Shown in pieces: positions 40,464 to 63,418 of a stretch of 64,000 bases of DNA. The position numbers were made by a program, and so were the translations under genes. The notes beneath the pieces were generated by a model. It was not told where the DNA came from. It searched no databases and saw only the letters and a program-made list of their open reading frames with translations. The DNA comes from Candidatus Zhuqueibacterota bacterium (GTDB lineage: Bacteria; Zhuqueibacterota; Zhuqueibacteria; JANLFK01; Oleimicrobiaceae). Numbering within the stretch: position 1 is the first letter of the stretch; the number at the start of each line of letters is the position of its first letter. The DNA lies in the NCBI GenBank assembly GCA_024655945.1, contig JANLFK010000004.1, positions 545 through 64,544 on the forward strand. Direction: 5' to 3'.

Positions 40464-40652
40464 CACGCTGCCGTTCTTCTTTCCGGGAACTTGCAGCCAT
40501 GGGGGGTGCAGTTGTCAGCCACGTGCGCGGCTGAGAGAGTCGAGCCAAGAACGATTGACCCTGAGGTGATGCCAGAGTTTTTGCGCGGGTCGTCACAGTC
40601 TGTCCAGCGATGCTGCGAAACCAATGGATAGGACGCGAAAGGGAAGGAAACG

Positions 40653-41084: not shown

Positions 41085-41143
41085 GAGCTGGGCGCCGTGG
41101 CGCGATGGGCTTGCGGCACTGACGCTATCGTGAGGAGTGGAAC

Positions 41144-41557: not shown

Positions 41558-41563
41558 GGCACT

Positions 41564-42497: not shown

Positions 42498-42599
42498 AGC
42501 CGGAGTGAGTTTCCTCGGAGAAGGACAAGAGTGAGCAACCAGGGCGAGCAAGCTGACGCGGAAGGTGAACCTTCAAGATCAAGAAAGGAGGTGCGCACC

Positions 42600-44057: not shown

Positions 44058-44258
44058 GGCCTGTGTGCACAACAGGGAGTTTCGACGGCGAGACCACGAT
44101 GTGGTATCGGTGGGCAGGAGCGCGCGTCTGGGCTGACGATTTTTGGTACAGGCGTGAGAGCGGGCTTGCAGGCGTGGCGAGTCCGAATGGCGGACAAAAT
44201 GTTTGCTTCCCGGAGCTGGACAGCTTGGCGCTGTGGCGAGATTCGGACGGGAACAAGG

Positions 44259-44447
44259 GTGCGAAGGCCTTTCGAGCCTCCCTTTCCCGGTGGCCATCCG
44301 ATAATGGGGTGGTGCTGCGGCCCACGAGGCTAGCATAGCCCCAGCAAAGAGGAAGAACGGGAGTGGTTAGAGTCCTACAAGGAGGAGACGGAGAGCGAGC
44401 TGTCTGAGCTCGAACCAAGAATGGCAAAGGAGGAGAGAAGAAGTTAG
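44259..44447 (+). pseudogene. degenerate paralog of the 42306 small protein, interrupted by an in-frame TAG at 44331-44333 where the intact copy has TGG (Trp)
   Basis: Nucleotide-level similarity to 42306..42497 over ~190 nt (…CATCCGATAATGGGGTGGTGCTGCGGCCCACGAGGCTAGCATAGCCCCAGCAAAGAGGAAG…); upstream 150 nt also resembles the 3-prime end of the ATPase gene, indicating a segmental duplication; no ATG at the homologous start. Confidence 0.55.
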
Positions 44448-44630
44448 GGTCATGACTCGCCTGGAGAACGTGGAAGGTGGGGAGTCACAGCGAGAGGGCT
44501 ACGCGGAGGAGCTGGCTGTCAGTCCGTTGACCCCCGAGGGCAGCCGCGCCTAGTATCTGGACTTAAAGCGGGGGCCGCAGACAGGTGCCCCGCTCGCGTA
44601 GTGTGTCCAACAAGATAGGGGGAGGTGGAA

Positions 44631-45281
44631 ATGGCAAGGAAAGAAGTCTGCTGAGAACTTTCGGCCCTGTTACGGCCGAAAACCTATCCCTTTGGGGTCA
44701 AGTTTTCTGATAACACCAGTGAACGTCCTCAAGGAACCATGCGGCCGAGACATCCGATGAATACCTGCCAGATTACAGCCATTGTGCGGTACTACGCCCG
44801 ACCGATGTATTCTACGGCAGAAGATATGGCCTGCATTGTGGGTGGGGTTACTCTGGGGCTGATTCCTGAGACGGAAAACATGAAGAACGGGGAAATTGCC
44901 AAAATGCTGCATGCGGACCTGGAATCGGCGCGGGAATTCACCAGCAGAGTAGCCAAAATTCCTTACGGGAAGTTTAGGGCGGTGGCGGTGGCACCTATGT
45001 CAAAGTTGAACTTTGAACCGGATATTGTCGTCACGTATGGCAATACCGCGCAGGTGATGCGGGTCATCCAGGGCTATCTCTACAAACGTGGCGGTCGGGT
45101 TGCATTTTCCACTGGGGGGAGTGGAGCCTGTGTGCCGATAGTATCGCGCAGGCTTATGTCGATGATGATATTGCCTTGGGTCTGCCGTGTTTCGGCGACC
45201 GCAAAACCGCACTGGCCCACGAAGATGAGGTCACCGTCGCTTTCCCCTATCACTTGTACGAGGAGATACTGGACGGGATGA
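44631..45281 (+). CDS. DUF169-family protein (COG2043) with an in-frame TGA at codon 8 (44652-44654) and a frameshift near 45130-45180
   Basis: RBS ggaggtgg + ATG 44631; N-terminus M-A-R-K-E-V-C-stop-ELSALLRPKTYPFGVKF...RPRHPMNTCQ matches the DUF169 N-terminal pattern (..PVAIKF...RFCQ); C-terminal part continues in frame 2 (PYHLYEEILDGMKATAE) after a gggggg run. Confidence 0.55.
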
Positions 45282-45365
45282 AGGCCACCGCCGAGGTGGC
45301 TGCCGGTTTGCGCCAAAGAAGCCGAGAATCTAGACATTATCCTGGCCTGCGATGGGGCGGCCAGT

Positions 45366-45677
45366 GTGGGCCAGGTGGGGCACGCGGTGGCCGTTGAACT
45401 AACCAATTCCAAGGAAGCGGCTCGTATGTGCTGCATCACGGCCGTAGCCGCCGAGTCGAAGGCACACGTTGATGTCGCCAGGCGGGCCAGGAAGCTCGTC
45501 GTCATCAACGGCTGCGCCAATCGCTGTGCCAGCAAGGTGCTGGAGAGGCTGGACATCCCTTACGATTACGAGACGGTCATTGCCAAGGAGGGAGTAAGCA
45601 AGGTGCCGACCCTTGACTTCGACAAGAAGGACGTGCAACGCATTGCGGAGAAGATCGCCAAGGAGGCGCTCGGCTAA
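45366..45677 (+). CDS. DGC-domain (putative zinc-binding) protein; real N-terminus probably lies upstream near 45285-45300 (ILACDGAASVGQ) without an obvious canonical start
   Basis: VVINGCANRCASKVL and upstream ILACDGAA match the DGC-domain pattern; frame is open back to the DUF169 stop. Confidence 0.5.
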   Translation: MGQVGHAVAVELTNSKEAARMCCITAVAAESKAHVDVARRARKLVVINGCANRCASKVLERLDIPYDYETVIAKEGVSKVPTLDFDKKDVQRIAEKIAKEALG

Positions 45678-45772
45678 CGGGCTGTGGGAAAGCGGTCTTG
45701 TTCGAGGAAGCACTGGGGACACGATGTGGCTTCAAGATTCCTTATGGGAGTAAAGAGAAGGAGAAGAACAGA

Positions 45773-46177
45773 ATGAAAATCGCCGCCGTCTCTGAAGATG
45801 GCGTGACCATCAGCCAGCACTTTGGTCGGGCGCCGTTCTACGTGGTTGTTACCGTGGAGAACGGCCAGATCGTGGGCCGGGAGACACGCGACAAGATGGG
45901 TCATGCCCAATTTGCCAGAGAGCCACATACGCGAGGGGCCCATGGGAGCGACTCGCACGGCCACGGCTTTGACGCGGCCGCTCAGAGCCGTCACGCCCGC
46001 ATGGCCGCCGCCATTGCCGATTGCGACATCCTGCTGGCGCGCGGCGTGGGCGCCGGCGCCTACGAGAACATGAAGCAGGCCGGCGTTCGCCCCATTGTCA
46101 CCGACATTGCAAAAATCGAAGCGGCCGCCCTTGCCGCCCGCGGCGAGTTGATCGACCACGCAGAGCGCCTGCATTGA
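45773..46177 (+). CDS. NifX/NafY-like dinitrogenase iron-molybdenum cofactor-binding family protein
   Basis: MKIAAVSEDGVTISQHFGRAPFYVV...CDILLARGVGAGA pattern of PF02579; RBS aaggagaag. Confidence 0.7.
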   Translation: MKIAAVSEDGVTISQHFGRAPFYVVVTVENGQIVGRETRDKMGHAQFAREPHTRGAHGSDSHGHGFDAAAQSRHARMAAAIADCDILLARGVGAGAYENMKQAGVRPIVTDIAKIEAAALAARGELIDHAERLH

Positions 46178-46467
46178 GCGGCAAGCCCAGCATCAAAGTC
46201 CTCGGCGCGAACTGCGGCGCCTGCCGCGCGGTGAGCATAGGCTCGATGGTATAAACGAAACAAGATTTGTTCTTGAGGCTACCCCGGGCGGGCTGCATCC
46301 CGTGTGCATTGGCATTGCCGCTGTGAAGGCTACGGCCGGCTCCATTGTTGGCTCGAAACTAAGGGAGACGAAGCTGCCGAGCGGGCAGCTCAAGAGGGCC
46401 ATCGGCGTTTTGCGGTGGCTGATCGTCGCCAAGATGATTTTCGATTTGCTGAAACAAGAGGTGCAAA

Positions 46468-47029
46468 GTGCTCAAGGCATTGCAGAAAACCGCAAAGGTG
46501 GTCGAAGGCAACCTGGTGGTGTTCGTGTTGCTCGCCATCGTGGCAGGCGTGGCCTTCGGCTGGAAGTTCCCGGCTGCGGCCAAGGGACTCAAATCGTACA
46601 CCACGCTGACCCTCTTCATCATGCTCTACCCGATGATGATCGGCCTGCGCATCGAAGAGGTGGGCAAGGCAGTGATGAACCTGAAACTGATCAGCCTGTT
46701 CATGCTGTTGAACTTTCTTCTCGCCTCTGCTGGCGGCGGGACTGGCGTATCTGTTCCTGCATAGCCGCCCCGATTTCGCCGTCGGCCTGATCCTGACCGG
46801 CACCGTTCCCTGCGCGGACATGGTTGCCGGTTGGACGGGCTACGCCAAAGGCAACGTGGCGCTGGCGCTGGCGACCATCTTCTTCGGCCCGCTGACGGTG
46901 CTGGTGCTGGCGCTCAAGCCGGTCATCCAGATCACCTTCATGGCCACCTTCCTGCGGATTTCAGGCCGGCTGACGAAGTGGTTTGCCCCCACGCCGCAGC
47001 TGCATAAAATGGCGGTGGAAGCGAAGTAA
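46468..47029 (+). pseudogene. truncated, frameshifted membrane permease remnant (DUF318/ArsP-like or BASS-like: LTGTVPCADMVAGWTGYAKGNVALALA)
   Basis: N-part ORF 46468..46764 and C-part 46820..47029 join only via a frameshift near 46735; total ~185 aa, too short for the family. Confidence 0.4.
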
Positions 47030-47074
47030 TCCCTCGCGGTCTGGAAAAATCACAAAATTGCGAAAGGAGATGCA

Positions 47075-47422
47075 ATGAAATCTGAAACCCCAAACGAAAT
47101 CGGCGAAAGCCTGACTGCCTTTGCAGAAGAATTCGGCAAGGTGTTGGACCCGGTCGCTTTCTTGCAAGAGCGGAACCCGGCGCTGTGCGCTGCTTTCCTG
47201 CGCCTGCACGAGCTGACGCTGAACGATGGCGCGGTCTCGAAGAAACACAAGTTCCTGATCCACGCCGCGATCACTGCGGCCCAGCACGATCGTGAGGCGA
47301 CCGTCATGCATATCACCGGCGCGCAGGAGTTGCTGGAGACGGCCTTTACCATCATCCCGGTGGCCGGGATGCCGGCTTTTGCCGTTTTCCTGAGCGCCTG
47401 GAAACAGGCACGGCAAAGTTAA
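47075..47422 (+). CDS. carboxymuconolactone decarboxylase (AhpD-like) family protein
   Basis: PALCAAFLRLHELTL...KHKFLIHAAITAAQHDREATVMHI core CMD motif. Confidence 0.65.
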   Translation: MKSETPNEIGESLTAFAEEFGKVLDPVAFLQERNPALCAAFLRLHELTLNDGAVSKKHKFLIHAAITAAQHDREATVMHITGAQELLETAFTIIPVAGMPAFAVFLSAWKQARQS

Positions 47423-47435
47423 GGAGAAAACGCAG

Positions 47436-48509
47436 GTGACTACAGAAAAGCAGATCATAGAAGCATTGGCCGGGGTCCTGGACCCCGAATTGCACCGCAG
47501 CCTGGTGGAGCTGGGCATGGTGCGCGACGTACGCGTGCAGGCCGACGAGGTGTCCTTCACCCTGGCGTTGACCGTTCCCGAATGTCCGCTGAAAGACCAG
47601 ATCGTGGCCGAAGCCAGGGCGGCCGTGCTGGCCCTGGACGGCGTCCAGGAGGTGCAAATTGACCTGACCGAGATGGCCCCCGAGGAAAAGCAAACGATCG
47701 GCCTCGGAGGAGCAGGGCAGGCGGGTACGGCGGAACGGTTCAACCACATCCGGCATGTCGTGGCGGTGGTGAGCGGCAAGGGCGGCGTCGGCAAGTCGTT
47801 CGTCAGCGCGCTGCTGGCCGTGGCCCTTCGGCGAGACGGCCAGACGGTCGGCGTGCTGGACGCCGACGTCACCGGTCCCAGCATCCCCAAGATGTTCGGG
47901 CTTCACGGCGCGCCGCCGATGAGCCCCCTCGGCATCCTGCCCGCCCAGACCCAGACCGGCATCAAGGTCATGTCCATCAACCTGCTCCTGCCCAGCGAGG
48001 ACGAGGCTGTCATCTGGCGCGGACCGCTCATCAGTTCCGCCATCAAGCAGTTCTGGGGCGAGGTCGTCTGGGGCAACCTGGACTGGCTGGTGGTAGACCT
48101 GCCGCCCGGCACCTCCGACGCCGCGCTGACGGTGATGCAATCGTTGCCGCTCTCCGGGGTGTTGTTGGTCAGTTCGCCCCAGGACCTGGCCGAGATGGTG
48201 GTGCGCAAGGCGGCCCGCATGGCGCGGACGATGCAGGTTCCTCTACTGGGGTTGGTTGAGAACATGAGCTACTTCGTCTGTCCGGAGGGCGGCCGACGAT
48301 ACGAGGTCTTCGGCCCCAGCCACGGCGAGGAGATGGCCCGTCGGCTGGGAGTGCCCTTCCTGGGCCGGCTGCCCCTGGACCCGCGTATTGCCGCGTTGTG
48401 CGATGCGGGAAAGGCCGAGGAATATCCGGCAGAGGCATTTGCCCCAATCGCTCACCAGCTACAGGAGGCAGCGACTGAACCCCGCCGGTCCCCCATGCAA
48501 CCGAAGTGA
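47436..48509 (+). CDS. apbC: iron-sulfur cluster carrier protein ApbC/Mrp with N-terminal DUF59 (MIP18) domain
   Basis: Walker A SGKGGVGKSF, LDADVTGPS, Fe-S ligands ENMSYFVCPEGG, N-terminal DUF59 (ALAGVLDPEL). Confidence 0.8.
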   Translation: MTTEKQIIEALAGVLDPELHRSLVELGMVRDVRVQADEVSFTLALTVPECPLKDQIVAEARAAVLALDGVQEVQIDLTEMAPEEKQTIGLGGAGQAGTAERFNHIRHVVAVVSGKGGVGKSFVSALLAVALRRDGQTVGVLDADVTGPSIPKMFGLHGAPPMSPLGILPAQTQTGIKVMSINLLLPSEDEAVIWRGPLISSAIKQFWGEVVWGNLDWLVVDLPPGTSDAALTVMQSLPLSGVLLVSSPQDLAEMVVRKAARMARTMQVPLLGLVENMSYFVCPEGGRRYEVFGPSHGEEMARRLGVPFLGRLPLDPRIAALCDAGKAEEYPAEAFAPIAHQLQEAATEPRRSPMQPK

Positions 48510-48525
48510 TCGAGAGGTGGGCAAA

Positions 48526-48951
48526 ATGGAGCCACAGAAGGAGAAAGCACCGTTGCCCAAAGTGGGGCTCTTCGCCCGCTCCAGCGGCGGCTCCAACACT
48601 GGCTCGCTGACCGGCCTGGCGGCCCTGGAGGTGGTGCGACGCCTGGGCAGCGAGACGGTCGGCATCTGCTCATTGCCGGCGACCCAGAATGACGTGCCCC
48701 GGCAATCCGCCCTGGTGAGCAAGATCGAAAAGATCGTCGTGATAGACGGTTGCCACAACGAGTGTGTCCGTCAGTTGCTGGCCGGGGTCGGCATCCAGCC
48801 CGACGTGTACCTGAACCTGGAAACGGAGCCGAATCTGACCAAGCAAGGGCCTTTCAGCAGTCTGGCGTTCACCGATGATCCAGTGAAGCGGGTGGCCCAA
48901 AGGATCATCGGCTGTGTCCAACACGTGCTTAAGTCGGGCAATTCTTTGTGA
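48526..48951 (+). CDS. DGC-domain putative zinc-binding protein
   Basis: KIVVIDGCHNECVRQLL DGC motif, RBS gagaggtgg + ATG 48526. Confidence 0.6.
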   Translation: MEPQKEKAPLPKVGLFARSSGGSNTGSLTGLAALEVVRRLGSETVGICSLPATQNDVPRQSALVSKIEKIVVIDGCHNECVRQLLAGVGIQPDVYLNLETEPNLTKQGPFSSLAFTDDPVKRVAQRIIGCVQHVLKSGNSL

Positions 48952-48991
48952 GAAGGCAAGCAACGGGCAAAGTAGCCATGGAGGACGCGAT

Positions 48992-49195
48992 ATGCCAACC
49001 TATGAATTCAAATGTCTGGATTGTGGGCACCAGTTTGAGGTTTTTGCCCCGATCAGCCAGAAGGAAAGGGGCCTGGAACTACACTGCCCCAAATGCGGTA
49101 GCGAAAAGATGGGCGAGATCTTCGGTAGCCTTATCTTTGTGCACAAGACCGGCGACGTCGTGCCATCCGGCGGCAGCTGCTGCTCACGGCGATGA
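48992..49195 (+). CDS. FmdB-family zinc-ribbon protein
   Basis: MPTYEFKCLDCGHQFEV...LHCPKCGS CxxC...CxxC; RBS ggagga. Confidence 0.7.
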   Translation: MPTYEFKCLDCGHQFEVFAPISQKERGLELHCPKCGSEKMGEIFGSLIFVHKTGDVVPSGGSCCSRR

Positions 49196-49346
49196 GATGA
49201 CGCCAAGCTGGCCAGTTTGCTGAGGGTGTCCTGGCACAGCGAAAAGCGATGGCCTGGTGGAGGTACCAGGGAGTGGACACGTGCACTGAGCCGAGGAGGT
49301 ATCGAAGGGAGCGGAAAAAACTCTTGGCTTCATCGGTGGCGGACGG

Positions 49347-50098
49347 GTGACCCGGCTAGTGCTGGAGGGTCTGTGCCGGGCCGAGGGCCTGCCAAAACAA
49401 CTCCTGGTCTACGACCCGGAAGCGAACAATCTCGAAAGACTATCGACCATCGTAGGCGACCGCCCGACCGAAGCGGACTTGCATCGGGCCGTCGCCGAGG
49501 TGGCCGATCTGATGTTTCTGGCCGTGCACCCACCGGTGGCGGTTGAGGTGTGCGAGCAGATCAAACCCGCGTTGAAAAGAGACGCGACCATCATCTCGTT
49601 GATCCCCACCATCACGCTCCGCCGCCTATCCGAGATGCTCAACGGCTTCAATCGCATCGTGCGCATGACCCCAACGCGCCGTCGGTGACCGGCAGGGGTT
49701 ACAATCCGGTTGTCTATTCGGATTCTCTCACGGCGGCTGACCGCTCATCGCTCGTGAGCCTGTGCCGGTGCTGGGGCCAATCGCCTGAAGTGCGCGAGGA
49801 GCACCTGGAGGCCTACGCTATCCTCACCGGCATGGGGCCCACCTACTTCTGGTTCCAGTGGCCGGAGCTGGAGCGATTAGGGAGGGAGTTCGGTTTGAGG
49901 CAGTCCGAAGCTCTGCAGGCAGTGGCGGCCATGCTGCATGGCGCGCTGGATGCGCTGTTTCACTCCGGACTGCCGGCCGAACAAGTGCTGGATTTGATTC
50001 CCGTTTACCCGTTGAAAAACGATGAAGAAGCCATCCGGCATATCTTCCGAGATCGGTTAGTCGCTCTGTACCAGAAGCTGAAGGCAGCGACTCGGTGA
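49347..50098 (+). CDS. proC: pyrroline-5-carboxylate reductase; frameshift near 49660; GxGxxG motif (LGFIGGGR) encoded upstream of the only in-frame start (frame open from 49293, no canonical start there)
   Basis: ORFs 49347..49688 and 49550..50098 are the two halves of ProC (RIVRM[M]PNAPSVTGRGYNPVVY); one nt missing at ATGACCCCAACG. Confidence 0.55.
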
Positions 50099-50251
50099 CA
50101 TCCTTTGCGAAAAGAGGGGTCCACAGGAGAGGAGGAAATTGGACAAGGCGACTGGGTTCGGTGTGCACCAGGGTGCAGTTGGCCCCTGTTGACTGCAAGA
50201 CAGTAATGGTTCCTCTTGCGAATCGATTCTCCAATTACCGAGGAGGCCATA

Positions 50252-51168
50252 ATGAGACTTGCGCAAACGTCTTTCTGGAGGAATTATCTTCCCACCATCG
50301 TCTTGCTGTTTGTTCTCCTGGCCTTGTTCATTGGGCTCTTGCCCAGCGACAAGCTGCGCAGTGAGAACTTGCCAACGCTGAATGTTGGTCATGGCAGCTT
50401 CTTGGTCGTCATTGGCCTGTTGGCTGGTTTGCTTGGCGGTTTGATTGGTACCGGCGGCTGCAGCGTGATGTTTTGCCAGCCATTCATTTCTGGTTGGGTT
50501 ATCTAGCCACCACTGCAGTTGGCACCACGCTCTTTGCCGTGGTTCTTACCGCCATCTCTGGCGGCTACGGCCATCTCATCCGCAAGAACCTGGATGTGCG
50601 AGCCACGCTGTGGGTTGGCATTTCCGGTATCGTCGGTGTCATCATTGGTTCCTACCTCTTCAAACTGCTCACGGCACGCACGGCGCTGCTGGGATTGATC
50701 TTGGGATTGGCGTTTCTTTGGCCTGCCATCCGCATGATCTGGGAAGGGCTGTTGCAGACCAAGAAGCCTCAGGCCATGGGTGAGTCGATTCCTGGGCCCA
50801 CATGGGGTTGGGTGATCATGGGACTGCTCATTGGCATCTTGACGGGCGTGGTCGGCTTGGGCGGAGGTTATGCGTTGGTGCCTGGTTTCATCTACTTGTT
50901 TGGTGCGCCGGTCTACGTCACCATGGGCACGTCGCTGGCAACCATGATCCCGCTTGCTGTGGTGGGTGGCGGAATCAAACTGCTACAGGGATTCGTGGCG
51001 CTGGGGGCGGGTTTGCTCTTGGCTATTGGGACCGTCATCGGCGCCCAAATAGGTGCTGCCATCATCAAGAAATTCAAGCCGACCAGATTGAAATTCATCT
51101 TCGGCCTGTATTTCCTCTATGTATCCGTGAAATTTGTCACGGCGTTTTTGGGGGTAACAATCTGGTAG
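50252..51168 (+). CDS. TauE/SafE-family anion (sulfite) exporter; frameshift at a TTTT run near 50470
   Basis: ORFs 50216..50506 and 50473..51168 join as ...LIGTGGCSVM / LPAIHFWLGY...; two TauE-type repeats with GxGGG motifs (VVGLGGGYALVP); RBS gaggagg + ATG 50252. Confidence 0.6.
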
Positions 51169-51534
51169 CCCGTGAAATGATCTTGCCATCTCCTTAGGCG
51201 AGCGGCTGAAGGAGCGAGCGCTGGTACCGCCGCGAGCCCTTGGATGACAGAAGTCATCGCGCCGTGTGCCCCACCGGGATGGCAGGGTGGGGGTGGGTTG
51301 CCGTGTGTGTGTGGGCGCGATAGCAACCGTCACCACCTGGAGCTCCAAGGCTATTTGGGCATATTTGGCGGGGCCTGCGCGGCGCTCTAACCTTTGGCGA
51401 GCATGGGCGTCAGCCGCAGGAAAGGGCAGAGCATCACGTTCCCCTGCTTCGGGCAGCGGCTCGGGCCAGCCGGTCCGGTGCGTCGTGACGAGACTTCTTC
51501 CCAAGAGGCCAAACAACAGAATGAGGAGAAGAAC

Positions 51535-52320
51535 ATGGAACAGCGAATCTCTATCAGGATGTCAGCACTGCTGTTGGTTGTCACTTCTGCTCTGATGGTC
51601 TGCGAGGCTGCTCCCCTTTTGGCACACACCAGCCAGCCCGCCAAGGCCTCGGCGGAACTGCAACAATTCGATACCGTGGTCCTGGAAACCCGTCAGCAAA
51701 TGCGACAGTACTGCGCGCTCGTCTAGGAATTGATTAAACAGGCGGATGCCCAAAAGCAAGCGGCTGGACTGCAGCACATCCGCCAATCCATGGTTCTGTG
51801 GGAAAAAGTCCGGCAGAATTTTCAGAACAACCCGCCGGAAGAATACCGCCAGGATGAAAAATTCAGTTCGCGCCTCCTTGACATCTATCAGGGCATGCAG
51901 AACATGGAAAGACAACTTGCAGATGGCGACTTCAACGAAGCCCTGCAAACTTGCAGTAAGACCTGCGGTTTGTTTGTCAGGATGCATGAAGAGAATGGAT
52001 TGATCTGCGCCGCAGACCGATTGTTCCACCTGCGGAAACAGGCGAAGAAGATGGTCGATGAGGCGCAACAATCCGATATTGAGCCGCTCAAGGAGATGAT
52101 CGGCGAGCTGCTGAAGCTGCGGGACAACGTTTTATGCGCTCCTTGCCCTGCGCCGGAAGACTCTCTGCGCTGCCAAAACTATCGAGAGGCTCTCAAGACT
52201 CTCTCCGCCCAGATCGACGAACTGACGATCCAATTGGTGAACGGAAAGCACATAGAAGCCCAGGCGGCACTCAAGAGTCTGCTTGCGGCTATCAATCTTG
52301 CCTACGGGATTGCCTTGTAG
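51535..52320 (+). CDS. hypothetical secreted alpha-helical protein at the head of the RND efflux operon, interrupted by an in-frame TAG at 51724-51726
   Basis: RBS gaggagaag + ATG 51535, signal peptide MSALLLVVTSALMVCEA; ORFs 51394..51726 and 51730..52320 are in the same frame separated only by TAG. Confidence 0.45.
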
Positions 52321-52356
52321 GTCACGAGCAAAGCCTCAGACTTTGGGAGAATCAGA

Positions 52357-53715
52357 ATGGCACTCTCGCGTACGCAAATCCTGCAAGAGAAAGGTCGCCT
52401 CGGCTCACTGTATGGGCATTTCATGAAGCAAGTTAAGCTTGCTCTGTTCATCTGCGCCTTCTTTCCTGGGCTGCTGCGCGCCCAGGGGGTGGCGCAAGAT
52501 ACCGTCGCCCTCTCCCTGTCGGCCGCGCTGAAGGAAGCATTGTCCAACAATGAACTGCTGAAAAAATCCGCGGCGCGCACCAAAGCGGGTCAAGCATCGC
52601 TGCAGCAGGCCGAGGGCGAGTTGCTGCCGAAAGTGGATGCCAACTTCAGTTATGGCTATCTGGATATTGTGCCGGGCTTTAAAAGAGTCGTGCTCGGCAA
52701 CATCGAACACGACCTGTTTCCGAATATCGCCGTCAGCCAACCGCTGTACACCGGCGGCAGATTGAAACATGCCAAACAGGCTGCTGCGGCCGAGGTGCAG
52801 TCGCTGGAGCAGGCGTTTCTCTCGGATCAATTGAATTTGAAATTGGCGGTTACCCTCGATTATTACCAGCTGCAGTCGCTAAGAAACCAGCGGCAGATTT
52901 TGCTGGAAAACCGAAGGCAGTTGGAGGTGCAACAGCGCTACGCCCGCCTGCTGGTGGAGGCCGGGCCCATGTCCCAACTGGAGCTGGACCGTATTGGGGT
53001 TGCGGTTGCCACCACCGACGGCAATTTGCTCAAAATTCAGGACGATTATCAGGCGGTGTCGTATGAACTCTGCCTGCTGTTGGGAAGAGAGCGCTCCCAG
53101 CTTCCTCTGCCGCAGGATTCTCTGCAGGTGATTCCGTTTGAACAGAGCTTCGAAGCATTGGTGCCGACGGCGCTGGAACGGAATCCGATCTGGAAACAAT
53201 TAGAGTACGATCTGCGCAAGGCTGAGGCAAAGGTCAAGGTCCAGCAAGCGGCTCGTCTGCCACAGATTTCAGCGCAAGCATATTGCGGGTATGAATTTGG
53301 CTTGGAGTCCTTTTGGTTCGATCGGAATAAACGCAATTTTTGGGGATTGAACGCGAAGATGCCGCTCTACGAAGGCAACGTGATTGGGGCGAAGATCGAC
53401 GAGGCCAGAGCCAATCTGGAGCAGATCCAATGGCAGAGGGAATACTTCAGGAAGAATCTGGCCACGCAGGTGCAGAACAGCTATGCCCGGCTGAAAGAAA
53501 AAGAGCAGCAGCTCGCCATCCAGCAGCAGGCTGTGGAACTGGCGCGGCAGAGTTATCGGCTGGCTATGATCGAATACCATGCGGGAAGGCGCTCCAATAC
53601 CGGTCTGCTGGATATTCAGAAGAGTCTGCTGAATGCTCAGCTGACCCTGAATCAGGCAGCACTGGACTACGCCATTGCTCGCGTCCGCCTACTGGCGGTG
53701 ATGGGGATTTTGTGA
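52357..53715 (+). CDS. TolC-family outer membrane efflux protein
   Basis: Signal peptide, two TolC-type repeat halves with conserved LSLSAALKEAL...NNELL start and alpha-helical/beta-barrel pattern, 452 aa. Confidence 0.75.
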   Translation: MALSRTQILQEKGRLGSLYGHFMKQVKLALFICAFFPGLLRAQGVAQDTVALSLSAALKEALSNNELLKKSAARTKAGQASLQQAEGELLPKVDANFSYGYLDIVPGFKRVVLGNIEHDLFPNIAVSQPLYTGGRLKHAKQAAAAEVQSLEQAFLSDQLNLKLAVTLDYYQLQSLRNQRQILLENRRQLEVQQRYARLLVEAGPMSQLELDRIGVAVATTDGNLLKIQDDYQAVSYELCLLLGRERSQLPLPQDSLQVIPFEQSFEALVPTALERNPIWKQLEYDLRKAEAKVKVQQAARLPQISAQAYCGYEFGLESFWFDRNKRNFWGLNAKMPLYEGNVIGAKIDEARANLEQIQWQREYFRKNLATQVQNSYARLKEKEQQLAIQQQAVELARQSYRLAMIEYHAGRRSNTGLLDIQKSLLNAQLTLNQAALDYAIARVRLLAVMGIL

Positions 53716-54011
53716 GCGTGTCGACGGCGAAACCAGGTGAAATGGAAATGCCTCGGCCGGGCGACTCTCGTGGCGGTGTCGAACAGCGCCCGGTGGAGAT
53801 GGGTTTCTCGGGGCGTGATGGGCAGCGAGTGGAAGCGCCCTTGCACAATAGGAATTGGAAAACGGAGTGTTCCATGCCAATGGCAACCCCGGTTCTACGG
53901 TCAAGATGTCAAGACAGAAGGGGACTTGCCGAATACCGGGGCATGTTGTTCGCAGCCGCCTGCAACGGGGAAAAGGCTGCTATCTTCTCCACTTAATCTG
54001 GAGGTCCAGTC

Positions 54012-54305
54012 ATGATGGTTTTTGACTTGAATACCTTGAAAGCCTATCCCTACAAAGAGCGGGATAAGAACGTATTCTTTCGCGCGCCGGAATTCAAGGC
54101 CCGGATCATCGAATTACCTGCAGGTGGCGAAATGCAATCGTATGTCGTATTCTTGGTCATTCGAGGGTCGGCAGAGGCGATGGTCAATCAAGAAGAAACG
54201 CAGCTCGAGGCGGGTCAGTGCCTGAGCACCGGACCGGCTACACTCTCGCTCAAGTCGGACGGAGGCGTGCGCATTCTGGGGCTCCAAGTGAGCAAGCGGA
54301 TCTGA
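54012..54305 (+). CDS. cupin-domain protein
   Basis: 97 aa, cupin beta-barrel pattern (ELPAGGEMQSYV...), RBS ggaggtc. Confidence 0.45.
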   Translation: MMVFDLNTLKAYPYKERDKNVFFRAPEFKARIIELPAGGEMQSYVVFLVIRGSAEAMVNQEETQLEAGQCLSTGPATLSLKSDGGVRILGLQVSKRI

Positions 54306-54345
54306 CATGTAGTAGACCTTTGACGTCACATGAGGGAGAGCAGAG

Positions 54346-55365
54346 ATGAACAAGACAGCAACTTTCTTCTTCGCATTGCTTCTGTTGGCGTGGGGTCTGT
54401 CTGGGTGCGGGTCAAAGCAGGACAACACCGGAGAGGCCAAGAAGACAGAAGCAAAGTTGATAAAGGTGCAGCCTGTGGGCAGGCATAGATTGGTGGAAAG
54501 GCTCCAGCTGCCGGCAACCCTGCGCGCCGAGAATGTCGCCAACATCCTGTCTACCTCTGAGGGCAAAATCTCCCAGCTGCTGGTGCGTGAGGGAGATCGA
54601 GTAGAGGCCGACGCTGTTGTCGCCACGATCAGCCCGCTGGTGCGCGAAGACATAATCAATTCCGCGCGCCTCTGGGTCGAGGCCAAAAAGGGGACACTGA
54701 GCAATGACCCACACAACCCGGTTCTGCAGAGAGAATACGAACAGGCCCGGCAAGACTATCAATTCGCCTTGCAGCAGTACAAAGAGATCCACATTACCTC
54801 TCCCATCGCAGGCGTGGTGTCGCGGCGATGGGTTGACGTAGGCGACATGGTGCAGGCTAAGGTGAAGCTGTTCGAGATTCAGAGTAGTGGAAAACTGCTG
54901 GCGGAAGTGCCAGTTTCAGAACTGGACATTGGTAAACTGCGCCTTGGTCAGACGGGTGACATTTTCGCGGACGCCTGCCCATCAAAGCAATTCACAGGCG
55001 TCGTACAACGCATCTACCGGCAGGCCGAGGCAAAGACCAGGAACGGAATAGTAGAGATGCGGGTTATCGACCCCTGCCCGAATCTCAAGCCTGGCATGTT
55101 TGTCAGGGTCACTTTCGTGACGCGCACCCTGGAGAACGCTGTGGCGATTCCGAGCCAGGCGGTAATTGAACGTCCGCAGAAACAAACCTGCTTTGTGGTG
55201 GAGGAAAGCAAGGCGAAGGAAGTGGTGCTGCGAACCGGCCTCGAGGTGGAAGGCTGGGTAGAGGTCCTCGAAGGACCTGCGCCGGGGGATATGCTTGTGG
55301 TCGAGGGCCAGGAGCAGTTGAAAAGCGGTAGTGCGGTGAAGGTCCAGGCCCCGCTGGTAAGGTGA
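54346..55365 (+). CDS. RND efflux periplasmic adaptor (membrane fusion protein, HlyD family)
   Basis: Lipoprotein signal LLLAWGLSGCGS, coiled-coil hairpin, lipoyl and beta-barrel domains (ITSPIAGVVSRRWVDVGDMV). Confidence 0.75.
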   Translation: MNKTATFFFALLLLAWGLSGCGSKQDNTGEAKKTEAKLIKVQPVGRHRLVERLQLPATLRAENVANILSTSEGKISQLLVREGDRVEADAVVATISPLVREDIINSARLWVEAKKGTLSNDPHNPVLQREYEQARQDYQFALQQYKEIHITSPIAGVVSRRWVDVGDMVQAKVKLFEIQSSGKLLAEVPVSELDIGKLRLGQTGDIFADACPSKQFTGVVQRIYRQAEAKTRNGIVEMRVIDPCPNLKPGMFVRVTFVTRTLENAVAIPSQAVIERPQKQTCFVVEESKAKEVVLRTGLEVEGWVEVLEGPAPGDMLVVEGQEQLKSGSAVKVQAPLVR

Positions 55366-55387
55366 GCGGCCAGGCAGGAGAGAGACG

Positions 55388-58193
55388 ATGAAGCTTACTA
55401 CGATTTCCATTCGCCGGCCCGTGGCCACGCTGGTGCTGATGGCAACCGCCGTGGTCCTCGGCATCTATGGTTATTTTCAATTGCCGACCGACTTTCTGCC
55501 GGATATCACCTACCCTATGATCAAAGTGTACGTCTACTGGCGCGGGGCTACACCGGAGGAAATCAACGACAACATCGCGGAGCCGATTGAAAGAACCTTA
55601 GCCACGGTGGACAATCTCGATTATCTCGAAGGCTCGTGCATCGAAGGCATGTACCAACTGCTCGTGAATTTTGAGTTCGGCACCGATGTGGATGTGGCGT
55701 ATCAGGACGTGGTGGCCAAAATGGGTCTGGCGACCCGCAAGCTGCCGCCGGATGTGGATCCGCCCATCATGTTCAAAGCCGATCCCTCGCAACTGCCGGT
55801 GGTGCAACTCATCGTCATGTCCGACGGTCGGGATCTGGTCAAGCTGCGCACCTGGGTGGAAAATGTGCTGCAGGATCAATTTTTAGCAGTGAAAGGCGTG
55901 GCTGGAACCGAGATCGTGGGTGGTCTAAGACGGGAAATTCGCGTTCATCTCGACGCAGAACGGTTGGCAGCATACGATTTAACATTAAACCAAGTCATCA
56001 AACGCTTCCAGGAGGAAAACATCGAGCGGCTCGCGGGTCGGGTGACCGAAGGCGGAAGGGAATTTATTCTGCGTACCAATGCTGAGTTCCGCAACCTGGA
56101 CGATATCCGCAACGTGGTCGTGCTTAACGACGGAAAATCCATGGTGCGGCTGAAGGATCTGGCAACGGTCGAAGACAGCCATGAAGAGCAGCGGGTGATT
56201 ACCCGGTTCAACGGCAAACCGGCGATTAAGGTGAATATTTTGAAACAGGCCGATGCCAATACCGTTGAGATCGCCCATCGGGTGAATGAACTGATTCGGA
56301 AGGTGGAAGATACGGTGCCGCCGGATATCAAATTCGGCACGATTGAGAATCAGGCGGATTACATCAAAGGCGCCATCGCCGGGGTGAGGGATTCAGCCAT
56401 CGTCGCCGTATTGTTGGTCATTCTGGTGATCTTTTTATTTCTCGGCCATTGGCGTCAGGTCGTGGTGATGCTGATCGCCCTGCCGATTACCATTTTGCTT
56501 AATTTTTTCCTAATGAAAATCCTCGGTTTTTCCATCAACATTTTTTCGCTGGGCGGAATGGTCGTGGCCATGGGCGTGGTGCTGGATAGTTCCATCGTGG
56601 TGATCGAAAACATCACCCGGTTGCATCTGGAAAAAGGGAGCCGAAGCGATACGGTAGCGGACACTGCCACCAGCGAAGTGGCGCTGGCCGTGGTGGCATC
56701 CACGTTGACCTTCCTTGCGCTGTTCATGCCGTTTCTGCTGATTCCGGGGCTGACCTCCCTGCTATTCAGAGAGTTGATCCTGACCATTGCCGGAATCGTG
56801 GTCGTGTCCCTGCTGGTGGCGCTCACGGTGACACCCATGCTCACCCACTATCTGGTCACCAGCAAAGGCCACCGACGGGAACGGCGCAGCATTGCCGACC
56901 GCTTCATCCAGCTCATTGACCGCATTTACCGACGCGTGCTGAACGGGTTGCTGCCGTTGCGCTGGGTGGTCTTGGCGGTTTTTGTCTTATTCATGGTAGC
57001 CGCGGTTTATCTGTTTAGACATGTCGGCAGCGAATTCTTGCCCAAAGTGGACGACGGTCGCGTGATGATCAAAGTCATCCTGCCCACCGGCACATCGGTG
57101 GCGCGCACCGATAGTCTCTTGGCCCGTCTCGAGAGCGTGGTCAAGGACGATCCTTATGTAGATCGCTATTTTACCCTGTCCGGCGGCAAGGTATGGGGAC
57201 TGGTCACCTACGAGGTCGCCAATGAGGGCGAGATCGATATTGAATTAAAAAAGTCAGCGGCCGTTTTCGACTGAACAGTACCTGGAACGCATTCGGCCGC
57301 AGGTAATGAAATTCATGCAGCCCGGCGCCCGGCTGGTGGTGGCGCAGCAAAAGATGAAAGGCATCGGCAAGGTGGGCGAATCTTACGACATCCGGGTGAT
57401 GATGCCGGAGACCAACATTCGCTCCCGGCAGGATATTGAGAATCTCTATCTCGATGCCCCGGGAAATTTGAAACTTCCGCTGCGCACCGTGGCTCAGGTG
57501 GTCCCACGGTTGGGGCCAGTGGAAATCGTACGGGAAGATCAGATGAAGCAGATCGTCGTCTCCAGCGATGTGACCGCCGGCGCCAGCGTTGGCGACATGG
57601 CCAATGCTGTTAGTGCCGCATTGTCTGAAATTCGTTTGCCAGAGGGGTATTCCTTCGATCTTGGCGGCCAGGTCTATATGATGAAAGAGAGCCAAAAGAC
57701 GATGCTGCAGATCATCCTGTTTGCCTTGTTCTTCGCCTACGTGATTCTGGCAATTCAGTTCAACTCGTTCAAACAGCCATTGCAGATCTTGCTGGGCGTG
57801 CCGTTCTCATTTGTGGGAGTCGTTGCGGCACTGTTGCTGACCGGTTTTCCTGCCGGCGCCACGGTGCTTATCGGCGTAATCATCATGACCGGCGGCATTG
57901 CCACCCAGGGCGTGGTGTTGATCTCATTTATCAATGAGTATCGTCAAAAAGGGCTGGGATTGAAAGAAGCCATTCTCGAAGCCGCGCCCTTGCGCGTGCG
58001 CCCGATTCTGATGACCCAGGCGACCACGGTGCTGGGACTGTTGCCGCTGGCGATCAACTATGGCGAAGGCGGCGACATGCTGCAACCGATGGCCATTGCG
58101 GTGATCGGCAGATTGCTGTTCTCACTGTTGGTTACGCTGCTGCTATTGCCATGTCTGTATTTTGTCTTTGAAAGGGGAGGCTCAAGGGAGTAG
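55388..58193 (+). CDS. RND efflux transporter (AcrB/HAE1 family); frameshift near 57240-57300
   Basis: ORFs 55388..57274 and 57306..58193 are N- and C-parts of one ~930 aa RND pump (12 TM, two large periplasmic loops); frames differ by one nt around a poly-A/poly-T stretch. Confidence 0.7.
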
Positions 58194-58379
58194 TTCCTCG
58201 CAAGGCTACAGGGGGGCGGAATGCATGGCGTCGCAAAGGGCAGGGCGCGGGTGGATGCGATGCCAGCTGCAACAGAGGGGTAGGCCCCGTGGCGTTCGTT
58301 TGCACGCTCGGTGAGCAAACAACCCGAGCGCAGCGACATTTACCTGTTGCAGATGTGCGGGAATTTTGTATATTTGCAC

Positions 58380-58620
58380 AACCAGGTTGACAGGGCCTCC
58401 TGGCGGAGGTCACTCCCTGGCATCGCCGCTGCCGTCGGCACCGAGGTCTGCGCCGGTGCCCCCGCCGTGGCGAGGCGATGTCGCCCAGGAGGCGCACAGT
58501 TGTGACCTTCGTGGTCCCCTTTCCAACTGAGCCCTCAGACTGTCGCAGTGCGGCAACGATGCGCCGCCGAAACAGGGGGAATGGGCGCACGGCCAAGGAT
58601 CTTGCCCGACAGTGGCCGTT
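58380..58620 (+). ncRNA. candidate M-box (ykoK) Mg2+-sensing riboswitch in the mgtE leader
   Basis: GGTTGACAGGGCCTCCTGGCGGAGGTCAC...CGCCGCTGCC resembles the M-box 5-prime core (GGUUAGGUGAGGCUCCU..GGAGAUAC GCUGCUGCCC) with a compensatory P2 helix GGCCUCC/GGAGGUC; downstream GGCCAAGG matches the conserved CCAAGG; located directly upstream of mgtE. Confidence 0.4.
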
Positions 58621-58666
58621 GTTCATGCTGGTGTCGATGCTCCCAGGATGCCAAGCGAGGTGGCCC

Positions 58667-60013: not shown

Positions 60014-60147
60014 GCGGGGCAGGGCTGATTCAGCAGGGGCAATGCGGCAGTGGCCCGCCGGGCACAGCCCCTGCGTGTTGCCTGGTGCGCATCAACTTGC
60101 GGGTGTAATGCCCGTGAAAGGTGGAAAGATGAACCGTACGGCAAGAA

Positions 60148-61127
60148 TAGCAGTCGTCGTTGTGTTGCTGGTGGCAGTTGGTGTGGTGCTGGTGCTGCGC
60201 GGCAGGGTGGACAAGGGGCCGCGTCAAGAGGCAACTGTGGCGGAACTGACGGCCGGAGGGAAGGAGGATCTGGGGAGTGCAGCCGAGGCGAAAGAGGCGT
60301 CACCCGGTCAAGCGTCTGCTGAGCCTGTGGCAGTGGCGCCACCTGCGGCTCTTCCCAAGGGCACTGTCGCCCTGGTGGATGGCCGGCCCATTACCGAGGA
60401 GTACCTGCGCACCACCTTCGAAAGCCTGCCGCCTCAGTACAAGCAGGAGTTTCAAGGTGACATGGAGACCTTCTTGGACCAGCTCATTGTGCGCGATCTG
60501 CTCCTCAACGAGGCCAGGCGCCGCGGGCTGACGGCAGCGGACTCCTCCGGGGGCGAGAGCCAGGACGGCACCATCCAGGCGCTGGTGAACGCCTTGGGGA
60601 GCGCCGTACAAGTGTCGGATGCCGAGGCCAGGCGCTTCTACGCCGAACACGCCGAGGAGGTGCAGGGCGCAACCTTTGAGCAGGTGGAGAGCAGTATTCG
60701 CGACTACTTGGGCCAGCAAAAGTTCGTCGCCTCTATCTCTTCACTCATTGATAGCCTTCGCTCAGCAGCGAAGATTGTCAAGAACGAGGAATGGCTGGCG
60801 GCACAGCGAGCGGCCCAGCCCCCAGACCCGCTGGAGCCTGCGCTGCGCAGTGACAAGCCGACGGTGCTTGACCTTGGCTCGGACAGCTGCGTGCCGTGCA
60901 AGATGATGAAGCCCATCTTCGCCGAGCTGGAGAAGGAGTACAAGGGGAAGGCGAACATCCTGCTCTTGGATGTGTATGAGCACCGGCGGTTAGCCCGCCA
61001 GTATCAGGTGCGAGTCATCCCCACGCAGGTGTTCTTTGACCACCAGGGGAGAGTCTTCTGGCGCCACGAAGGATTCATGTCCAAAGAGGAAATCGTCAGC
61101 AAACTGCGCGAGTTAGGAGTGGAGTAG
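60148..61127 (+). CDS. membrane-anchored thioredoxin-fold protein with SurA-N-like chaperone domain (periplasmic thiol-disulfide oxidoreductase)
   Basis: N-terminal TM anchor, SurA-N-like region (IVRDLLLNEARRRGL), C-terminal thioredoxin domain with CVPC active site (DLGSDSCVPCKMMKPIF). Confidence 0.65.
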
Positions 61128-61828
61128 ATGCGGGCGGTTCTTGAGTGGCTTTCCTTAGCCATGGGTGGCTCGCCCGCCCTGGCTCTCGTTGGGGCTTTGC
61201 TGTGGGGTCTTTTGAGCATCTTGGTGAGTCCTTGCCACTTGGCAAGCATCCCGCTGGTGGTTGGCTTGATCGACGGCCTGGGGCAGATCTCCACCAGGCG
61301 CGCCTTTGTCCTTGCCCTCATTTTCGCCACCGGGATACTGCTGACCATCGCTATGGTCGGCGTGCTGACCAGCTTGACGGGCCGCATGCTTGGCGACCTG
61401 GGTGCAGTGGGCAACTATGTCGTGGCGGTCATCTTCTTTGCCATCGGACTCTATCTCTTGGGGGTGATTGACGTGCCGTGGCTTGGGGAGGGGCGCATCC
61501 CAGGCTGCACAGAGGGGGTGTGCTGGCTGCCCTAGTCATCGGCTTGCTCTTTGGACTTGCCCTGGGGCCGTGTACTTTTGCCTTCATGGCGCCCATGCTT
61601 GGGGTGGTCTTTAAGGTGGCGGCGTCGAACATCCCCTATGCAATCTCGCTGGTGCTGGCTTATGCTGTAGGGCACTGTTTTCTCATTGTGGTGGCGGGCA
61701 CCTTCACTGGCGCCGTGCAAAACTACCTGCAGTGGAACGAGCGCTCGCGGACGACGGTTATCGTGCGACGCATCTGCGGCGTGTTGGTGATTGCGGGCGG
61801 GCTTTATCTTCTGTGGACTGCGGCTTGA
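61128..61828 (+). CDS. ccdA: CcdA/DsbD-family thiol-disulfide transporter; frameshift near 61490-61535
   Basis: ORFs 61128..61535 and 61478..61828 are the halves of a 6-TM CcdA-like protein with the two conserved Cys (SPCHLASIP and GPCTFAF). Confidence 0.6.
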
Positions 61829-61841
61829 GAGGGGAGCGCTC

Positions 61842-62318
61842 ATGGGCAGAAAGCTGAAAGTGCTTTTCCTATGCACCGGCAATTCCTGCCGCAGCCAGAT
61901 GGCCGAGGGCTGGACACGCCGTTTGAAAGGCGACGCCATCGAGGTGTGGTCGGCCGGCATTGAACCGAAGGAGGTAGACCCGCGCGCGGTGGCCGTAATG
62001 GCTGAAGCAGGGGTGGACATCTCGGGCCAGCGTTCCAAGCACGTGCGCGAGGTGATGGACATTCCCTTCGACTATGTGGTCACCGTGTGCGATCACGCGC
62101 GGGAAACGTGTCCATTGTTTCCGGGTGCCGCAAAACGGGTGCACATGGGTTTCAGGGATCCTCCGGAACTGGCACGCCGGGCGCGCACCGAGGAGGAAGC
62201 CATGCAGATCTACCGACGCGTGCGCGACGAAATTAGGGCGTTCGTGGAGGAGATGCCAGGGATCTTGGAGACCGTCTCTTCCGCAGAGCGCCACACCGCT
62301 GAGAGGAAGGGCCGGTGA
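61842..62318 (+). CDS. arsC: arsenate reductase ArsC (low-molecular-weight phosphatase family, thioredoxin-coupled)
   Basis: P-loop VLFLCTGNSCRSQMAEGW, downstream Cys pair region, 158 aa. Confidence 0.8.
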   Translation: MGRKLKVLFLCTGNSCRSQMAEGWTRRLKGDAIEVWSAGIEPKEVDPRAVAVMAEAGVDISGQRSKHVREVMDIPFDYVVTVCDHARETCPLFPGAAKRVHMGFRDPPELARRARTEEEAMQIYRRVRDEIRAFVEEMPGILETVSSAERHTAERKGR

Positions 62319-62350
62319 CGGAACGAGAACAGTGGGAAAAGGGAGGCGTC

Positions 62351-63418
62351 ATGAGTGGGCAGACCGGAAAGCAATTGTCGGTGTAGGACAGGTTTTTGAC
62401 CTTGTGGATTTTCTTGGCAATGGCAGCGGGCGTGGGTTTGGGTTACCTTGTGCCTGGGGTCACGCGCCTTATTGCCAGTCTGCACGTGGGGGCGACCTCT
62501 TTGCCCATAGCCGCGGGACTCATCCTCATGATGTACCTGCCGTTGGCAAAGGTCAAGTATGAAGAGATGGTGCGGGTGTTCCAGAACAAGCGCCTTCTGG
62601 TGTTGTCCCTCCTGCAGAATTGGGTCGTGGGGCCCATCGTCATGTTCCTGCTGGCGATACTGCTTCTGCGTGACCATCCGGACTATATGATGGGTGTCAT
62701 TCTCGTCGGATTGGCGCGCTGCATCGCCATGGTCATTGTCTGGAATTCGTTGGCCGAGGGGGATCGGGAGCTGGCCGTAGGTCTGGTCGCCTTCAACGCC
62801 GTGTTCCAGGTGCTCTTCTATGCTGTCTACATCTACCTGTTCATCACTCTTGCCTTGAATTGGCTGGGAGTGGCAAGAGGGGTGGATGTGCACATCTCCA
62901 GTTTGGAGGCGGCCAAGACGGTGTTCATCTATCTTGGCATCTCCTTCCTTGCCGGCCTGATCACCCGCACGACCTTGCTCCGCCGCAAAGGGCGCGAGTG
63001 GTAGGAGAAGGTGTTCACTCCAAAGATCAGTCCCATCACCCTGGTGGCGCTCCTTTTCACCATCGTGGTGATGTTCTCCCTGAAGGGTGAGTATATCATC
63101 AAGCTGCCGCTGGACGTGCTGCGCGTGGCTGTGCCGTTGACCCTGTATTTCTTCCTGATGTGGTTTGTGACGTTCTTCCTTGCCCGCCGACTGGGGGCGA
63201 ACTATGCGCAGGTGACCGCGGTCTCCTTCACGGCCGCCAGCAATGACTTTGAGTTGGCCATTGCCGTGGCAGTGGCAATCTTTGGCATCCAGTCAAACCA
63301 GGCCTTTGCCACGGTAATCGGTCCGCTACTGGAAGTGCCCATCCTGGTCAGCTTGGTCAATGTCGCGCTGCGGCTCAGGCGGCGGTTCACCCCAGTCGAG
63401 GCGAACGAGATGGCATAA
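62351..63418 (+). pseudogene. acr3: ACR3-family arsenite efflux transporter interrupted by two in-frame TAG codons (62384-62386 and 63002-63004)
   Basis: ATG 62351; N-terminus MSGQTGKQLSV[23 protein letters not shown] matches the conserved ACR3 start (..LSFFDRYLTLWI..); ORFs 62396..63004 and 63011..63418 are in the same frame separated only by TAG; otherwise the 10-TM protein is intact. Confidence 0.65.

Follow-up and report, generated by a model that had tools for sequence, protein, structure and literature searches.

Do in-frame stop codons inside conserved bacterial genes signal that these codons are read as amino acids, that the sequence is faulty, or that the genes are dying? The question is raised by a 64,000-nucleotide stretch (referred to here as the window) of contig JANLFK010000004.1, from the Candidatus Zhuqueibacterota assembly GCA_024655945.1, in which four TAG codons and one TGA codon interrupt genes of a redox, metal(loid), and efflux block. 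The source is an uncultured, metagenome-assembled KSB1/Calditrichota-like bacterium; the G+C content of the window is ~60%, and that of third codon positions (GC3) in the codon usage of the contig is 0.76. We conclude, with a probability of about 0.8, that the stops are real and independent point mutations that arose in a localized burst of gene decay and that no special decoding is involved. The five stops, with the codons that they replaced, are as follows.

44331-44333, plus strand: TAG in a DUF5320 paralog; ancestral TGG; transition
44652-44654, plus strand: TGA at codon 8 of a DUF169 gene; ancestral TGT/TGC (Cys); transversion
51724-51726, plus strand: TAG at codon 64 of a secreted helical protein; ancestral CAG (Gln); transition
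62384-62386, plus strand: TAG at codon 12 of ACR3; ancestral TTG (Leu); T-to-A transversion
63002-63004, plus strand: TAG at codon 218 of ACR3; ancestral TAC (Tyr); C-to-G transversion

All five codons had been reported by a first-pass annotation of the window, and all are present, with homologous coding sequence continuing in the same frame on either side of each. The TGA does stand at codon 8 of DUF169 behind a good ribosome-binding site and start (GGAGG-N5-ATG), as had been described. The proposal that a paralog gives TGG as the original codon of the first TAG also holds. An intact DUF5320 copy at 42306-42497 (~80% nucleotide identity to the broken one; weak Pfam DUF5320 match) reads GGC-TGG-CAT where the broken copy reads GGC-TAG-CAT, which places a G-to-A change at 44332. 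Homologs of DUF169 share a conserved E-V-C-C-E motif, and the TGA occupies the place of its second Cys. A scan gave 52 metagenome loci with DUF169 homologs, of which 47 N-termini were read; the homologs that keep the N-terminal motif show E-V-C-C-E-L-S-A-M-L-R-P-K, with TGT or TGC at the stop site (Cys in at least 36 homologs). The helical-protein homologs (L004, L005, and L006) have Gln at the corresponding position (IVQELIKQ or LVQQLIKQ). Among 13 ACR3 homologs (72 to 91% identity), codon 12 is Leu and codon 218 is Tyr (Phe in two), and the DNA of the closest relative, L003, has TTG and TAC at these codons.

The stops therefore replace five different residues (W, C, Q, L, and Y; for the four TAGs, W, Q, L, and Y) and comprise two transitions (TGG to TAG and CAG to TAG) and three transversions (TGY to TGA, TTG to TAG, and TAC to TAG). 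The earlier statement that every stop is reachable by one transition is formally correct, but the codons of the relatives make three of the five transversions. Likewise, of the original codons that orthologs had been expected to carry (TGG, CAG, or CGA), TGG and CAG were found at two stops, while TGY, TTG, and TAC occupy the other sites.

The affected genes had been regarded as otherwise intact, which is not the case: nine more lesions lie in the same 19 kb, two of them in DUF169 alone. At least 14 disabling lesions are present at 44.3 to 63.4 kb (~19 kb), i.e., the five stops, six frameshifts (DUF169, -1; SBF-like, -2; P5CR-like, -1; TauE, -1; RND, -5; and DsbD, -1), and three larger deletions or truncations (a deletion fusing DUF169 to DGC, the loss of 255 bp from RND, and a truncation that took the 3' half from the SBF-like gene). 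Clustered pseudogenization of an accessory region, one of the explanations offered by the first-pass annotation, thus has a stronger basis than was claimed for it, with 14 lesions of all kinds in place of five. The decaying block is a 19-kb set of co-directional redox, metal(loid), and efflux genes (DUF5320, DUF169, DGC, SBF-like, P5CR-like, TauE, the helical protein with OEP/HlyD/RND, DsbD, and ACR3). Its broken members are listed below.

44259..44447, plus strand: broken paralog of a DUF5320-family small protein, with one in-frame TAG (window tblastn)
44631..45304, plus strand: DUF169 pseudogene with three lesions (Pfam DUF169; homolog comparison)
45288..45677, plus strand: DGC-domain gene without its start and first codons (Pfam DGC; orthologs)
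46468..47029, plus strand: remnant of an SBF/ACR3-like transporter, the second such gene (tblastx to L019, L032, L037, and L052)
49314..50098, plus strand: split P5CR-like gene, of the pyrroline-5-carboxylate reductase family (homolog frames; two overlapping genes in the JGI calls)
50252..51168, plus strand: split TauE/SafE-family anion exporter (Pfam TauE; 84-aa and 224-aa pieces in the JGI calls)
51535..52320, plus strand: secreted helical protein (signal peptide present); the OEP-HlyD-RND efflux genes follow it (homologs L004, L005, and L006)
55388..58193, plus strand: pseudogene of an RND (AcrB/CusA-type) efflux pump (Pfam ACR_tran; blastn/tblastn against L004 and L006)
61128..61828, plus strand: split DsbD_TM/CcdA gene (alignment to L003)
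62351..63418, plus strand: ACR3, an arsenite efflux transporter interrupted in frame by two TAGs (start ATG at 62351; homologs)

The damage is sharply localized. Broken genes number ~10 of 22 at 44.3 to 63.4 kb versus ~1 of 38 at 1 to 44.2 kb (Fisher P = 7e-5). Products of the first 44 kb are full length according to JGI gene calls and Pfam matches and include MFS, xylulokinase, GalK, PfkB, RarA, LptD-like, C1 peptidase, GAF-HD, EamA, FakA/DegV, Pterin_bind, NIF3, pectinesterase, esterase, SufBD, HypA, Mrp, and radical SAM/SPASM proteins.

The further lesions emerge from comparison with relatives. Besides its TGA, DUF169 has a -1 frameshift in a G run (45114-45119), where the homologs show GGEWSLCADS, and lacks its last ~32 codons (YPTPFD through the stop), the homologs being full length at ~256 aa. 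The junction of this deletion (45288-45304) fuses DUF169 to DGC. Orthologs of the latter (75 to 84% identity) begin M-x(5-12)-PPRILPLCAKEAE, and no ATG, GTG, or TTG start for DGC is found between 45282 and 45366. The 17 nt of the junction are homologous both to the DUF169 codons for ...AEVAA and to the DGC codons for PPR(I/W)LP; this dual homology marks a microhomology junction between the two genes, and one deletion took both the 3' end of DUF169 and the 5' end of DGC.

Single frameshifts split three further genes. The P5CR-like gene has lost one base of a C run (49669-49672; C5 to C4), so that the sequence ...NGFNRIVRMIPNAPS..., which is in a single frame in the homologs, shifts frame in the window at RIVRMTP|NAPS. 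TauE has lost one base of a T run (50471-50474; T5 to T4); the frame that encodes its N-terminal motif GLLGGLIGTGGCSVM gives way to the next for LPAIHFWLGYLATTAVGT, and the Pfam TauE match is limited to profile positions 25 to 236, on the larger piece. In DsbD, 1 bp is deleted at 61487, where L003 has CTTGGCTTGGCGGAGG and the window has CTTGGCTTGG-GGAGG; the protein of 233 aa in L003 is left as pieces of 135 aa and 80 aa.

Other genes were hit more than once. A TC repeat near 46716-46722 carries the -2 frameshift of the SBF-like gene; there the tblastx match switches from frame 1 (46501-46722) to frame 2 (46718-46909); homology stops at 46909, and the 3' half is missing (intact SBF genes of L062 encode 327 to 386 aa). 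The RND pump has a frameshifting 5-bp deletion at an A run (57247-57252) and a 255-bp in-frame deletion with its junction near 57384/57385, which spans two similar G-E-S/Y-x-x-I-R-V segments (junction stretch 57370-57399). Its Pfam ACR_tran match is broken into profile positions 3 to 622 and 746 to 1020, and its ortholog in L004 has 1030 aa (92% amino acid identity). Two amber codons in one transporter gene had been considered unusual for simple decay; the neighboring RND, DUF169, and SBF-like genes, however, carry two or three lesions each. The DUF169/DGC (45288-45304) and RND (57370-57399) junctions each fall in a short stretch similar to the two parental sequences alike. Such junctions of the two larger deletions are the footprint of microhomology or slipped-strand deletion and not of an assembler join.

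Intact counterparts exist in relatives. The closest sequenced relative at the right-hand end of the window, L003 (Calditrichaeota metagenome-assembled genome [MAG] GCA_014359355.1), is colinear with it across 5.5 kb at 85% nucleotide identity and carries intact, syntenic ACR3 (full length, 372 aa) and DsbD genes. The RND gene is intact in L004, and DUF169 is ~256 aa long in L009 to L060. In addition, L062 (GCA_034435455.1) contains a cluster of similar gene content in which every member is intact.

The choice of stop codons is that expected from random mutation. Under the codon usage of the contig, random nonsense mutations would be 58% TAG, 21 to 26% TAA, and 17 to 21% TGA, with a transition share of 25 to 58%, depending on the transition/transversion rate ratio. 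The observed TAG:TAA:TGA ratio of 4:0:1 and the two transitions among five stops fit this expectation. The excess of TAG arises because the GC3-rich codon usage makes NNG sense codons the commonest precursors of stops. About 4 to 5% of random substitutions create stops; by this rough figure, five nonsense codons would correspond to around a hundred substitutions in the affected DNA, or ~1% divergence, which would be compatible with the nine indels and deletions and with the absence of a clear excess of amino acid change.

A plausible course of events is that this lineage ceased to need or to express the block. Mutations would then have built up neutrally; among substitutions of both classes, some would have fallen on codons a single step away from a stop, and short runs would have lost bases by replication slippage. 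Recombination between short similar sequences would have deleted larger pieces. The resulting gene products would be truncated and nonfunctional.

Several observations weigh against this interpretation. The 14 lesion sites are known from an assembled consensus only. Mononucleotide runs contain or adjoin four of the six frameshifts, which is also the signature of long-read or pyrosequencing error. Relative-rate tests gave no clear excess of amino acid change in the broken genes and were nonsignificant for ACR3; those for RND, OEP, HlyD, and the helical protein were confounded by "intact" controls that were also longer branched, and none of these tests is used as evidence of relaxed constraint. 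The lack of a clear excess implies that the decay, if real, is recent. Random decay also does not predict that four of the five stops precede a GAN codon (GAA, GAA, GAC, and GAG, giving TAGGA three times and TGAGA once), for which the post hoc P value is ~6e-4 given 10.6% Asp plus Glu codons. We considered the GTAGGA motif as a methylation-linked error context and rejected it: the TAGGA stops derive from TTGGA, TACGA, and CAGGA by different changes, and none of the 13 remaining GTAGGA/TCCTAC sites of the window has been linked to a lesion.

A second record of the locus bears on the same issue. JGI contig Ga0417229_000096 (metagenome 3300038743) differs from the window by a single mismatch in 21 kb, at window position 51868, where the window has T (Ser in the helical protein) and the JGI contig has C (Pro); window position 1 corresponds to position 6026 of the contig. 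This single-base difference shows that the two are not one and the same record; all of the lesions are common to both, and the JGI gene calls display the same gene fragments as those seen in the window. The JGI assembly may nevertheless share reads with the window and so is not an independent confirmation, a further point on the negative side. Proteins identical to RarA and Mrp are recorded for NCBI MAGs (MCR4438681.1 and MDH7560916.1).

Could some or all of the lesions be consensus errors, with the 44- to 64-kb region drawn from low-coverage or error-prone reads (e.g., of a strain-specific island)? The sequence is a metagenome contig, and four of the frameshifts amount to the loss of 1 bp from a run of G, C, T, or A, as homopolymer under-calling would produce. 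Moreover, the N-terminal fragment product of DsbD is recorded only for the JGI contig, with its intact neighbors on two contigs, a pattern that would fit the flagging of pseudogenes as well as the presence of an intact allele in the second assembly. However, an error process at ~0.7 lesions/kb should also have struck the first 44 kb of the same contig and did not; every lesion is found in two distinct records that are one single nucleotide polymorphism apart; and base-calling errors make neither indels of -2 and -5 nor the DUF169-DGC fusion, the 255-bp deletion, or the truncated SBF-like gene. It further counts against such an artifact that T-to-A and C-to-G changes yielding TAG are not a known systematic error. 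Consensus error could account for part of the lesion set (it could not for the larger deletions or for the indels of -2 and -5), and we consider an artifactual origin unlikely overall. A more specific version, in which cytosine deamination or another transition-specific damage or mutator process made the stops, had been among the suggestions of the first-pass annotation. Two of the five stops are indeed G:C-to-A:T transitions (44332 and 51724), but this number is itself the random-mutation expectation, and the other nine lesions are indels or deletions. The ortholog codons TGY, TTG, and TAC require transversions at three stops and rule out an all-transition origin, so that the transition premise and the deamination option fail together; the chance that such a process made the stops is close to negligible.

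The stops might instead be decoded, the TGA of DUF169 as selenocysteine in a redox pair with Cys and/or the TAGs by pyrrolysine insertion, readthrough that depends on context, or a suppressor tRNA. The classic look of a selenocysteine codon is that of a TGA at a conserved Cys with a hairpin after it, and the DUF169 TGA aligns exactly with the second Cys of the Cys-Cys motif in a neighborhood rich in thiol-redox proteins. A perfect 8-bp hairpin with a GU-containing loop begins 4 nt after it (UUUCGGCC-CUGUUAC-GGCCGAAA; minimum free energy, -14.9 kcal/mol over 45 nt; z = -2.0 for a 62-nt fold), and the GA context at +4/+5 is common to four of the five stops. The hairpin that the earlier annotation proposed looking for, resembling a selenocysteine insertion sequence (SECIS), is therefore present, but the Cys-encoding homolog L010 has one of -14.4 kcal/mol at the same place; since it folds nearly as well, the hairpin is best seen as largely a by-product of the sequence coding for S-A-M-L-R-P-K. 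Its loop begins 12 nt after the UGA, a spacing shorter than that typical of bacterial SECIS elements. Of the 47 N-termini read, none has TGA, and the frameshift and 3' deletion mean that readthrough would not rescue the gene. On these grounds, we rejected the selenocysteine reading of this codon. As TGY to TGA is among the few single-step routes to a stop, the hit on a Cys codon is only a mild coincidence. Rfam gave nothing meaningful near the TGA, and a literature search turned up no DUF169 selenoproteins and nothing relevant on Calditrichaeota pseudogenes. For the TAGs, no single inserted residue would account for W, Q, L, and Y, and the replacement of five different residues argues against a single suppressor or reassigned meaning. 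Global reassignment had already been excluded by the first-pass annotation, and the terminators of 29 checked genes agree (TGA, 17; TAG, 8; and TAA, 4); the helical gene itself ends in TAG (52318-52320) at a C terminus (...INLAYGIAL*) conserved in its homologs. The low weight that had been given to readthrough was also appropriate: no tRNA with a CUA or UCA anticodon, and no tRNA-Sec, tRNA-Pyl, suppressor tRNA, sel gene, or pyl gene, was found in the 64-kb window, whose tRNAs are tRNA-His, tRNA-Glu, and a doubtful 92-nt "tRNA-Pro" (only two reach Rfam gathering thresholds). Altogether, recoding is highly improbable.

Some stops might also be less than fully inactivating, and ACR3 is the gene for which this deserves attention. 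Termination followed by reinitiation would yield two half-transporters that still function. Each of its ambers creates a UAGGA resembling a Shine-Dalgarno (SD) sequence upstream of an in-frame start (TTG at 62396 and GTG at 63011), giving TAGGACAGGTTT-TTG (62384-62398; AGGA-N7-TTG) and TAGGAGAAG-GTG (63002-63013; AGGAG-AAG-GTG). By alignment, not topology prediction, the first TAG falls in the N-terminal tail just ahead of the first hydrophobic segment, and the second falls between two hydrophobic segments, taken as the loop between transmembrane segments (TM) 5 and 6, i.e., between two 5-TM repeats. Beside the second TAG, an AAC-to-AAG change strengthens the purine tract relative to L003, and lineage-specific replacements show no significant excess over the sister in a relative-rate test. 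On the other hand, the SD sequences stand at marginal distances from the starts (3 nt, or 7 nt in the case of a weak AGGA), and at positions that are otherwise invariant, ACR3 carries five unique replacements (Q45H, P63L, G74V, E133S, and P198S) versus one in the sister. In addition, all other transporters of the block are unambiguously broken, and the idea is post hoc. We give a functional split ACR3 only a slim chance, and hold out similarly little for the broader idea that some stops are tolerated, whether in a split ACR3, as self-restarting nonsense mutations that become fixed (the GA context), or with the DUF169 TGA as a relic of a Cys-selenocysteine redox center in a family that has no known selenoprotein.

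Localized gene decay, the interpretation that we prefer, is set in a region with some further peculiarities. From 39513 to 49195, genes of the Fe-S and redox maturation type form a set that is duplicated in part: two Mrp/NBP35 ATPases (41564-42313 and 47436-48509), two DUF5320 peptides, and two DGC genes, together with HypA-like, SufBD-like, NifX-like, and CMD genes. A radical SAM/SPASM enzyme (42531-44057) sits between the DUF5320 paralogs. The G+C content is 0.55 to 0.56 at 50001-58000 (TauE, helical protein, OEP, HlyD, and RND) versus 0.60 to 0.64 elsewhere, and the efflux module in this interval may be a horizontally acquired insert inside the decaying block. The exception to the integrity of the first 44 kb is a GH88/GH105-like remnant at ~1.9 to 2.8 kb on the minus strand, a multiply frameshifted sequence with frame jumps and stops of which only ~55 residues match the Pfam profile; this older pseudogene outside the studied block adjoins an intact esterase (2801-3742) and pectinesterase (3901-4935) and hints at further pseudogenes in the genome. 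The tRNA-Pro (TGG) called by ARAGORN at 32552-32643 on the minus strand lies inside a GHMP-kinase-like open reading frame (31413-32828), is missed by the Rfam tRNA model, and is probably a false positive. A codon-usage log-likelihood scan for in-frame stops proved too noisy at 60% G+C, recovering one of the five stops together with shadow-strand hits.

The phenomenon is an ordinary one and has no bearing on open questions about the genetic code. Its value is mainly cautionary: stop codons found in frame on metagenome contigs tempt one to propose recoding, and the ortholog comparison here shows ordinary decay. Chance can place a TGA on a conserved Cys near a hairpin while a gene is dying. Should the lesions be borne out by read data, the locus would document that a KSB1/Calditrichota-like lineage recently lost a block of arsenic, metal, and thiol-redox genes, a loss of modest ecological interest.

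Among known systems, those with reassigned stops (genetic codes 4 and 25 for TGA, phages that read TAG as Gln, and pyrrolysine users) resemble the window in having TAG or TGA inside conserved genes. The window differs in that TAG and TGA end 25 of 29 genes at conserved C termini, in that W, C, Q, L, and Y align with the stops, and in having no matching tRNA. With bacterial selenoproteins it shares a TGA where homologs have a conserved redox-type Cys and a stable hairpin just downstream; here, however, the gene is broken, the hairpin recurs in a Cys homolog, the spacing is short, no homolog has TGA, and the window holds no selenocysteine machinery. Much of the gene content and the co-direction are common to the window and to the ArsR/ArsP/SBF/DGC/Trx/DsbD/TauE/CMD/Mrp/NifX-type clusters of anaerobes represented by L062, whose members are all full length, whereas nearly half of those in the window are disrupted. 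The closest likeness is to bacterial pseudogene islands. Islands decaying under relaxed selection, as in Mycobacterium leprae, Salmonella Typhi, and Shigella, accumulate nonsense mutations, slippage frameshifts, and microhomology deletions. The window likewise combines mixed lesion types, multiply hit genes, and intact orthologs in relatives with normal stop usage elsewhere and a lesion spectrum that matches random mutation on its own codon usage. It differs from these islands in that its decay is very dense and local, affecting ~10 of 22 adjacent genes beside 44 kb with one old remnant.

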